From: Candidatus Moraniibacteriota bacterium | GTDB taxonomy: Bacteria > Patescibacteriota > Minisyncoccia > Moranbacterales > UBA1568 | Assembly (NCBI GenBank): GCA_963743885.1 | Contig: CAVURJ010000001.1 | Coordinates: 355,173 to 419,172 of the forward strand | Direction of reading: 5' to 3' | Length of the DNA stretch: 64,000 nucleotides | Shown here: positions 53,407 through 53,668 of the stretch, piece after piece | How the letters are laid out: each line of letters opens with the position of its first letter | Numbering within the stretch: position 1 is the first letter of the stretch | Translations under genes and position numbers: made by a program | Notes under the pieces: model-generated | Database searches by the model: none | What the model saw: only the letters and a program-made list of their open reading frames with translations | Told to the model about the DNA's origin: nothing

Positions 53407-53479
53407 GCCGTTGTAGCTCAGTTGGTAGAGCACGTCCTTGGTAAGGACGAGGTCACCGGTTCAATCCCGGTCAACGGCT
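53407..53479 (+). tRNA. tRNA-Thr (anticodon GGT)
   Basis: acceptor gccgttg/caacggc, D arm gctc-agttggta-gagc, anticodon loop uuGGUaa, T loop ttcaatc. Confidence 0.85.
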
Positions 53480-53648
53480 CAAGAAGAGATAAGGGAAGAA
53501 TCAAGAGTGTTTGTTTTGGAAGACATTTTCCTGTGTTTCAAGGGATTGAACGGGAAGGGGTCGGGAAACGGGAGTTTCCCGTTCGGGGTGACCCGAAGGG
53601 GCTAGAGGGCGGAAGCCCTATAGAGATCCGCCGGTTGGCGGAGATGTG

Positions 53649-53668
53649 AAATGCCCGGCCAACGGCTC
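53649..53668 (+). repeat. direct repeat of the tRNA-Thr(GGT) 3' end (cccggccaacggctcaag) about 170 bp downstream of the gene
   Basis: 18/19 identity with 53462..53481. Confidence 0.6.

Follow-up and report, generated by a model that had tools for sequence, protein, structure and literature searches.

Folded modules bounded by copies of the tRNA 3' end behind tRNA-Thr(GGT) and other tRNA genes of Moranbacteria

Integrative elements that target the T-loop of tRNA genes leave repeats that extend from the T-loop to the end of the tRNA. In integron cassettes, through their attC sites, and in CTX-phi-type elements, it is a folded single strand that recombines. A 17-bp guide matching a tRNA is carried by type V-K CRISPR-associated transposons, for which at least 15 tRNA genes serve as attachment sites (bioRxiv 10.1101/2021.02.06.429022). 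Together with the group I introns in the tRNAs of Patescibacteria (PMC13011429), these guides represent the closest subject in the literature to the elements described here, of which a full-text literature search returned no account. The elements are small modules behind tRNA genes, and the module considered in most detail lies behind tRNA-Thr(GGT) in a 64,000-nt stretch of the genome of a Candidatus Moraniibacteriota bacterium (contig CAVURJ010000001.1; this whole stretch is termed the window, and positions refer to it). The module is a conserved and structurally constrained fold of the + strand, bounded by repeats of the tRNA end and containing an antisense copy of it. Modules of this kind are dispensable, patchily distributed, arrayed and sometimes cargo-bearing. 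The family is widespread behind many tRNA genes in bacteria of the candidate phyla radiation (CPR) and apparently undescribed.

The modules resemble tRNA-targeting integrative elements in the direct repeat from the T-loop to the 3' end, the regenerated tRNA, the tandem arrays, the cargo and the clean loss. They differ in the lack of an integrase, the size of 130-200 bp, the conserved folded core and the internal antisense copy; additionally, one family of module cores is fitted to at least 15 different tRNAs. With attC and CTX-phi they share an imperfect hairpin site at the 3' side, co-oriented cargo, arrays that grow at a single attachment site and a cassette without a recombinase, and the pairing of two inverted target copies that rebuilds the site in CTX-phi has its likeness here. 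Unlike both, the modules attach at a tRNA gene, and their stem consists of target sequence that changes along with the target. Unlike attC, the core sequence of the modules is conserved, and no linked IntI or dedicated Xer is present in the neighbourhoods. No RYYYAAC or GTTRRRY boxes were seen on inspection of the base of the module stem, and the neighbourhoods contain no integron integrase.

At the locus under study, tRNA-Thr(GGT) is intact at 53407-53480 on the + strand, as identified by ARAGORN and by the Rfam tRNA model (71.7 bits). The upstream copy of the direct repeat, S1 (CCCGGTCAACGGCTCAAG, 53466-53483, +), comprises the last 14 bases of the tRNA and 4 trailer bases (CAAG), extending over the last T-loop base, the 3' strands of the T-stem and the acceptor stem, the discriminator and the trailer. 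The downstream copy, S2 (CCCGGCCAACGGCTCAAG, 53654-53671, +), matches S1 at 17/18 positions; the distance from start to start is 188, and 170 bp lie in between. The repeat of the tRNA 3' end had been noticed in a first-pass annotation of the sequence, a few bases away from these positions. The further proposal made there, of an insertion that is bounded by the duplicated end and leaves the tRNA intact, is supported, as regards an insertion/deletion, by an empty site in the related species L001. In L001 no insert separates the tRNA end GGCTCAAG from the rpmG promoter GGTTGACGAAAG, which it joins directly; in blastn, the window aligns with L001 up to 53483 and again from 53650 onward. An unrelated filler of 45 bp is found at the same position in L002. 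In the window, the promoter-like site of rpmG (TTGACG-17-TAAAGT, 53674-53702) directly follows S2, and rpmG begins 68 bp past S2. The segment is an insertion/deletion polymorphism whose edges lie exactly at the duplicated tRNA 3' end. L001 is a related species and not a sister strain, and its flanking genes are only ~88% identical to those of the window, so that the event may be either an insertion or a deletion and need not be recent.

The interior between S1 and S2 is GC-rich and hairpin-rich, in agreement with the first-pass description, and both hairpins quoted there are present (GGGAAACGGGAGTTTCCC at 53563-53580; CCGCCGGTTGGCGG within 53627-53642). The insert folds more strongly than shuffled sequences do (z = -3.6). 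Within the insert lies a core of ~100 nt, termed class A (53552-53653, +), which is supported by a covariance-model match, a consensus structure and covariation. Five helices form on the + strand, with the GNRA tetraloops GGGA, GUGA and GGAA. Helix P2 pairs 53559-53563 with 53589-53593; P3, with a GGGA loop, occupies 53563-53580; P4, a variable hairpin, 53592-53600; P5, with a GGAA loop (CUAGAGGGC-GGAA-GCCCUAUAG), 53602-53623; and P6, 53627-53642. The junction GATGTGAAATG (53643-53653) completes the core.

The covariance model, R1, was built from 14 class-A members and matches 34 modules in 85 Moranbacteria sources, with a single match in the window (53529-53668, 104 bits, E = 1e-27). In 71 distinct sequences, 91.2% of cells are paired compared with 79.2% in shuffles (0/500 shuffles as high), double changes occur at 27/33 pairs, and sliding of the partner lowers pairing to 33-50%; these covariation figures are somewhat inflated, as the alignment was fitted to R1. 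Independent support for the fold is provided by the MAFFT/RNAalifold consensus and by at least 25 different P4 stems, all of which form a hairpin. On the + strand, G-U pairs exceed A-C pairs by ~10:1, which indicates that this is the folding strand. A gene on the minus strand is ruled out by this excess and by the GNRA loops, which also lie on the + strand. Because the 170-bp interior is a conserved, covarying non-coding fold, the open reading frames (ORFs) that overlap it were not taken as genes.

A class-A module also exists between tRNA-Thr(GGT) and rpmG in L043, L034 and L064, and divergent class-A forms occupy this position in L013, L048 and L029. Across the Thr(GGT) loci of different Moranbacteria species the core is nearly unchanged, while no similarity is detectable between the adjoining spacers. 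The first-pass annotation had taken the segment for the scar of a single insertion, by implication a recent one, to be refuted by conservation and synteny in distant relatives. Both are found in these species; the segment is no scar and gives no sign of being recent, and in place of a single insertion a lineage-wide family is found, of which this locus is one instance. Class-A model matches are also present just upstream of rpmG in L047 (3784-3935) and L053 (3792-3905), where ARAGORN reports no tRNA-Thr(GGT); the tRNA gene may be interrupted or displaced there.

In every well-preserved unit, the parts follow one another from 5' to 3' as tRNA, spacer, antisense segment, folded core and sense copy. 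The spacer of the Thr(GGT) module (53484-53541, +) is an unconserved linker, and the spacers of the window, L043, L034 and L064 have no similarity among them. In most other modules the spacer consists of an A-tract, a hairpin and a T-tract resembling a bidirectional terminator, and the hairpin stands at a fixed distance from the core (47 modules). No promoter belonging to the module itself was found in the window, nor as a positional signal in the 47 modules. The antisense segment of the Thr(GGT) module, 10 nt in length (GGGATTGAAC, 53542-53551, +), is the reverse complement of the T-loop region GTTCAATCCC of its own tRNA, and as an inverted repeat 53456-53468 pairs with 53542-53554. The 5' segment is truly antisense, with the T-loop complement TTGAA and not the TTCAA expected of a sense copy. 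Antisense segments always span the T-loop and often the 3' strands of the T-stem and acceptor stem as well, the longest being 21/21 nt in L098. In their T-loop part, 6.9/8 positions on average agree with the cognate tRNA, with a perfect match in 35 of 84 modules, and variants of the T-loop are followed, for example TTCAATC versus TTCAAAT in Thr; in the same comparison, the position before the sense copy is often altered.

The sense copy reproduces the last 17-22 nt of the tRNA, and the duplication reaches ~62 bp where the terminator is included. The tRNA end, spacer and antisense segment are able to fold into rods of -50 to -75 kcal/mol. In an alternative pairing, the antisense segment and the downstream sense copy close the module, with ~80% of cells paired in the 71 sequences whichever the tRNA. 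This closing helix has exactly 7 + 5 bp plus the discriminator in well-preserved modules such as that of L098, where the base of the stem is tRNA-specific (CTCCGGC...GCCGGAG). It is cut to 6 bp in the Thr module of the window. In a tRNA-like processing element of the t-element type, a 12-bp mimic of this kind with an unpaired discriminator would be cut by RNase P and RNase Z. The first pass was right to propose small units associated with tRNA 3' ends; it had missed the internal segment antisense to the T-loop and the conserved fold.

Several known kinds of element were considered for the module and rejected. A tRNA pseudogene or second tRNA is not supported, since neither ARAGORN nor the Rfam tRNA model calls anything within the module. 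A T-loop intron does not apply, because the tRNA is complete with S1 and intron models give no match. The module is not a miniature inverted-repeat transposable element (MITE), as its inverted ends vary with the target tRNA and its duplication measures 17-22 bp (up to ~62 bp with the terminator) compared with 2-14 bp in MITEs. A known RNA family was rejected as well: five tRNAs alone reach the gathering score of Rfam 15 over the window, and nothing relevant, including group I introns, ribozymes and omega/HEARO RNAs, appears in 52900-54700 at E up to 10. A phage origin was set aside as well, the class-A hairpin being absent from 2.9 million viral contigs.

The extent of the family was assessed from a scan for the L33 protein with one genome per species. 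The scan yielded 80 loci, mostly of Candidatus Moranbacteria/Moraniibacteriota (CPR/Patescibacteria), with the same tRNA-rpmG-tRNA synteny; four contigs encode an L33 protein identical to that of the window. For the Moranbacteria loci and the window, a downstream copy was counted when the 12-mer of the T-stem/acceptor 3' strand recurred 40-330 nt away with at most 1 mismatch. A copy of the own 3' end is present downstream of 63/302 tRNA genes and upstream of 0/302, and in a control the 15-mer of the tRNA 5' end recurs downstream in 0/335. By our own arithmetic, the chance that a given 18-mer recurs with at most 1 mismatch in 300 positions is ~2e-7; this estimate and the two zero counts rule out a chance repeat. 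Among individual tRNAs, the copy accompanies Glu(CTC) in 25/65 cases, Tyr in 20/48, Trp in 9/69, Thr(GGT) in 8/60 and Thr(TGT) in 1/57, and modules are present at 13-42% of orthologous tRNA loci. Copies begin 14 to 19 positions before the tRNA end, in the T-loop or at the T-stem, and stop within a few bases of that end. At least six core types (A-F, ~25 to 110 nt) are carried on the common frame, and a given tRNA locus carries different classes in different species.

One core is combined with many tRNAs. The invariant 23-nt P5 hairpin was found at 51 sites in metagenome contigs, of which 37 lie 88-135 nt past the end of a tRNA, co-oriented with it in 37/37 cases. These 37 sites span 15 isoacceptors (Asn, Arg, Phe, Gly, two of Gln, two of Glu, two of Lys, Tyr, Thr, two of Ala, and Ser), and at each of them both flanks fit that particular tRNA. 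It can be seen in the Asn modules of L085 and L098 (CCTACCGCC versus CCTATCGCC) that the tRNA, antisense and sense copies covary. In L101, a contig of 110 kb, one module follows tRNA-Tyr and another tRNA-Glu; their 97-nt cores are identical, but the flanks differ. In genomes other than that of the window, the unit found most often behind tRNA-Glu has the Thr-type core, and the Thr and Glu cores of L034 are mosaics. As a separate observation, L125 (compared with L121 and L133) is a contig in which the left half of a tRNA-Glu module continues into the right half of a tRNA-Gly module and its flank; this reflects either recombination between dispersed cores or an assembly chimera arising from the ~100-nt repeat.

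Modules also occur in tandem and with cargo. Tandems of mixed classes are found behind tRNA-Glu in the window (E, partial C, E), behind tRNA-Tyr in L034 (D then B) and behind tRNA-Ser in L111 (B then A), and exact tandem duplicates in L014, L049 and L051. At some loci, L076 and L127 among them, the duplicated block takes in the whole terminator. Longer segments with cargo ORFs are in some cases closed by a module, and all ten ORFs examined are co-oriented with the tRNA; the cargo includes a 257-aa protein (L029), a 740-aa secreted-type protein (L094/L131) and a restriction-type helicase (L115). An orphan module in L094 has a sense copy that disagrees with the nearest tRNA-Asn, and no cognate tRNA 5' halves were found upstream of orphan modules (L094). 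Two side observations concern cargo. In L092, ~2.4 kb past tRNA-Gly, two GC-rich ORFs stand between two class-A modules, unlike the AT-richer host sequence, and look like horizontally acquired cargo. In L048, an insert of 395 bp bounded by repeats after tRNA-Tyr contains an 84-aa ORF which, by eye, resembles small GIY-YIG nucleases.

The findings are best accommodated, in our tentative judgement and with rather less than even confidence, by a non-autonomous cassette that recombines at the T-loop/3' end of tRNA genes via a folded copy of its target. The route of arrival and the purpose of the fold are what we infer in this scheme. A free form of the module, probably circular and single-stranded, would fold such that the antisense segment pairs with the sense segment. 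This duplex would amount to a replica of the tRNA gene over the T-loop and everything 3' of it, with a stem capped by the core on one side and by the spacer hairpin on the opposite side, a logic like that of attC cassettes and CTX-phi-type elements. A trans-acting recombinase could then exchange strands between the replica and the real tRNA gene, in or beside the T-loop. The outcome would be the order S1-spacer-antisense-core-S2, with a restored tRNA end and with the direct repeat as what is left of the end that was displaced or duplicated. Repeated entry at one site would give arrays, and accessory genes in the same orientation could be carried ahead of the module. The cassette would be lost cleanly whenever its two repeat copies recombined, with an empty site such as that of L001 as the result.

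Several observations count in favour of the cassette. These are the exact, repeat-bounded indel, the one-sidedness of the repeat, the tRNA-specific flanks on one core, the different classes held by one tRNA locus in different species, the mixing of classes in arrays, the cargo, the constrained core beside a diverged spacer, and the rods. The repeat also has its boundaries, T-loop on the left and tRNA end on the right, where integrative elements aimed at the T-loop leave theirs, and this too counts for it. The terminator-like hairpin ahead of the core at a fixed distance and the lack of a promoter signal fit a role at the DNA level better than an abundant RNA. The cassette would account for the repeat, its T-loop boundary, the order of the parts, the arrays and the co-oriented cargo, as well as for the clean loss, the silent place behind a terminator and the rod-like pairing.

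A number of points weigh against this proposal. It suffers from the missing enzyme, from a core with RNA-like traits and, most seriously, from the re-matching of both flanks, which it does not explain. No recombinase, transposase or reverse transcriptase is present among the families matched at least twice by the 150 ORFs within 3.5 kb of modules, those families being all housekeeping. No free or circular form of the module was seen, and the 2.9 million viral contigs yielded no class-A hairpin. GNRA tetraloops and a strongly conserved core sequence are features of functional RNAs more often than of sites of recombination. If the crossover falls in the T-loop, the right 3' end has to be present on the cassette beforehand, which leaves at least 15 matched pairs of flanks on one core unexplained. 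In the Thr module of the window, the antisense segment is merely 10 nt long, and the replica stem is correspondingly short. Patchy presence could equally result from ancient vertical inheritance followed by repeated loss through the repeats, not from gains. Also, nothing shows that the insertion is recent, the closest comparison genome, L001, being only ~88% identical in the flanks.

The main rival, which we regard as possible and somewhat less probable than the cassette, is a resident structured RNA in which the module is the trailer or spacer part of the tRNA primary transcript. Its antisense and sense ends would pair into a helix that copies the acceptor/T-stem stack of the adjacent tRNA, with a discriminator tail, and RNase P, RNase Z and the CCA-adding enzyme would trim the transcript to a stable RNA of ~130 nt with a functional core. 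Presence and absence would follow from deletion between the repeats, and cores would spread among loci via gene conversion. A mimic of the acceptor/T-stem helix with a discriminator tail is known from the t-elements of plant mitochondria, mascRNA-type structures and the tRNA-like domain of tmRNA (transfer-messenger RNA), and in the module, too, the helix could recruit RNase P, RNase Z or CCA addition. Unlike in those signals, the helix of the module literally copies the neighbouring tRNA, a 100-nt domain stands in the place of the T-loop, and the Thr members are without most of the helix. The fold on the + strand, the co-orientation with the tRNA in 37/37 cases, the GNRA loops, the strong covariation, and a closing helix that pairs for any tRNA (~80% in 71 sequences; 7 + 5 bp and the discriminator in L098) all agree with a resident RNA, as do the ordinary housekeeping neighbours. 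Purifying selection acts on the core and not on the spacer, and the Tyr module of the window is better kept than the flanking genes. Only ~12 nt separate the end of that Tyr module from tRNA-Thr(GGT), and they contain no promoter-like site on the + strand, which means that tRNA-Thr(GGT) is probably co-transcribed through the Tyr module. However, the module lies behind a terminator-like hairpin without a promoter of its own, and it is dispensable, being present at 13-42% of orthologous loci. The same flanks enclose several unrelated core classes, the smallest of ~25 nt, and the Thr modules, including that of the window, have no acceptor part of the helix. Moreover, the antisense segment tracks the T-loop of the real tRNA and not the 3' copy of the module itself. 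The cargo genes, the mixed arrays and the orphan module, whose 3' copy differs from tRNA-Asn, are left unexplained.

An unlikely further reading is a guide RNA. Here the core would be a protein-binding scaffold, and the tRNA-matched segments would guide an enzyme encoded at another place (a nuclease, a recombinase or a transposase) to its target, the cognate tRNA or its gene, resulting in a self-homing and re-programmable cassette. A scaffold with a conserved junction motif and a 3' segment of 17-22 nt identical to the tRNA from the T-loop on is what such an RNA could look like, and at least 15 target specificities are found on one scaffold, with the target independent of relatedness. The precedent lies in the guides of type V-K transposons, which likewise carry an element-borne tRNA copy of ~17 bp and have many tRNA targets that do not follow phylogeny (bioRxiv 10.1101/2021.02.06.429022). 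Unlike those transposons, the modules have no cas12k, tnsB, tnsC or tniQ (among the families displayed) and no Tn7 ends. In the modules the copy is also the boundary of the insert and an antisense copy is added, and the hosts are CPR bacteria and not cyanobacteria. Bridge RNAs and CRISPR-associated transposons follow a logic similar to this reading, with the difference that the guide cassette of the module is unlinked from the protein. The layout of engineered trans-splicing ribozymes and of pegRNAs (prime editing guide RNAs), with 5' antisense, structured core and 3' sense matching the target, is similar in layout only; the module cores, of several classes and 25-110 nt, match no known ribozyme. 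Against a guide stands the absence near modules of Cas12k, TnpB, IscB, Tn7 and IS110 among the Pfam families matched at least twice, as well as of any match to an Rfam guide or omega-RNA. A guide would find a perfect target of its own in the adjoining intact tRNA and would be masked by the antisense segment; the module has no promoter, and the cores of the minimal classes are too small for a scaffold. A broader form, in which a single scaffold, encoded or as folded DNA, steers an enzyme acting in trans by its antisense and sense tRNA copies, appears no more probable than the guide RNA. As a variant, the module may supply a spare tRNA 3' end for the repair of cleaved tRNAs.

Template switching during replication is disfavoured and, in our estimate, quite improbable. 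Under this explanation the arrangement S1-antisense-S2 would be a functionless 'tandem inversion duplication' that arose by snap-back at the terminator hairpin and the T-arm. The succession of sense, antisense and sense copies, with the first turn at a palindromic terminator, agrees with it, and the whole terminator is part of the duplicated block at L076 and L127. The second turn, however, is a conserved, covarying core of 100 nt that is unrelated to the tRNA and common to many loci and genomes, and the Thr module of the window has no terminator to snap back on. The palindrome is broken by asymmetric spacers (CAT versus CTATTCTC in L098), which rules out a simple snap-back palindrome. Least probable is a decayed attL/attR remnant of an integrase-encoding island or prophage once resident in tRNA-Thr. 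The classic footprint, a tRNA 3'-end repeat starting in the T-loop, is present, and islands at tRNA genes often come with arrays and cargo. However, no integrase or coding remnant is found in the 188 bp, the 170 bp between the repeats are a conserved non-coding fold that is structurally constrained and not decaying, the same interior stands behind 15 different tRNAs, and an internal antisense copy is foreign to known att sites. No full-length integrase-bearing element ending in a class-A core was found among 134 loci. Both of these explanations account for the repeats and not for the shared conserved core.

The genomes of CPR bacteria are tiny, and yet a fifth of the sampled tRNA genes bear at least one module, which represents a major unannotated component of intergenic sequence. 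A core re-matched to at least 15 tRNAs implies either that target sequence is copied into the element or that pairing with the tRNA is under selection; either would be new biology and possibly a programmable principle of targeting. If the guide-based explanation were true, gene cassettes could home to any tRNA in CPR genomes. The modules mark entry sites of accessory genes into these genomes and create partial tRNA copies that confuse annotation. Additionally, dispersed repeats of ~100 nt are able to break or mis-join metagenome assemblies, for which L125 is a likely example.

The gene order at the locus is rpsB, tsf, a tetratricopeptide repeat (TPR) protein, tRNA-Thr(TGT), tRNA-Tyr, tRNA-Thr(GGT), the insert, rpmG, tRNA-Trp, tRNA-Glu(CTC), a 114-aa ORF, pyrF and pyrE. 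Three module loci are present in this region of the window, behind tRNA-Tyr (53215-53392), tRNA-Thr(GGT) and tRNA-Glu (54186-54572). The first-pass annotation had related the Thr insert to the units at tRNA-Glu. The same anatomy is indeed found in these units and in the tRNA-Tyr unit, but their core classes are others, and no sequence similarity exists between the Thr insert and the Tyr and Glu units of the window. The Tyr module is of class B (+), with one hairpin, a CTGC-loop hairpin (53263-53282) and two further hairpins. It contains degenerate antisense segments at 53254-53263 and 53284-53299 and a remnant of the tRNA-Tyr 3' end at 53381-53392, of which L002 retains a clear copy. The stretch 53167-53483, comprising the Tyr module and tRNA-Thr, is ~92% identical to L001 and L002, compared with ~77-88% for the flanking protein genes, and two of its hairpins show compensatory changes relative to L001/L002. 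A promoter-like site on the minus strand (TTGACT-18-TACTAT, 53370-53399) is directed leftward into the Tyr module and would yield an antisense transcript stopping at the bidirectional hairpin.

The array behind tRNA-Glu(CTC) (+) consists of three units. Unit 1 (54186-54363) includes a terminator-like hairpin and a class-E module, unit 2 (54364-54442) is a 5'-truncated class-C module, and unit 3 (54443-54572) is a second class-E module. The tRNA end recurs in sense orientation from 54342, 54421 and 54551 and in antisense orientation from 54237 and 54447. The 114-aa ORF right after the array (54621-54965) has no Pfam match, and its position is conserved in L001.

The 16-nt hairpin TCCGCC-NNNN-GGCGGA occurs three times in the window, where none is expected: in an ORF, in the rpsB-tsf spacer and as P6 of the Thr module (copies at 23330-23345, 51533-51548 and 53627-53642). 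The copy inside the ORF is flanked by the direct repeat GGAAATTGG, like a tiny insertion, and the same hairpin is also inserted in P4 of some class-A modules (L005, L016 and L133). Insertions of another kind were found in tRNA genes themselves. In L001 (3410-3610) and, upstream of a module, in L103, the anticodon loop of tRNA-Tyr is interrupted by an insertion of ~190 nt, as a result of which ARAGORN misses the gene; the Rfam group I intron model scores below the gathering score at this insertion, and the tRNA-Tyr of the window is without it. On the contig L092, which has two class-A modules, an Rfam group I intron (5128-5341, minus strand, 55.7 bits) lies in a tRNA cluster, in agreement with the reported abundance of group I introns in the tRNA genes of Patescibacteria (PMC13011429).

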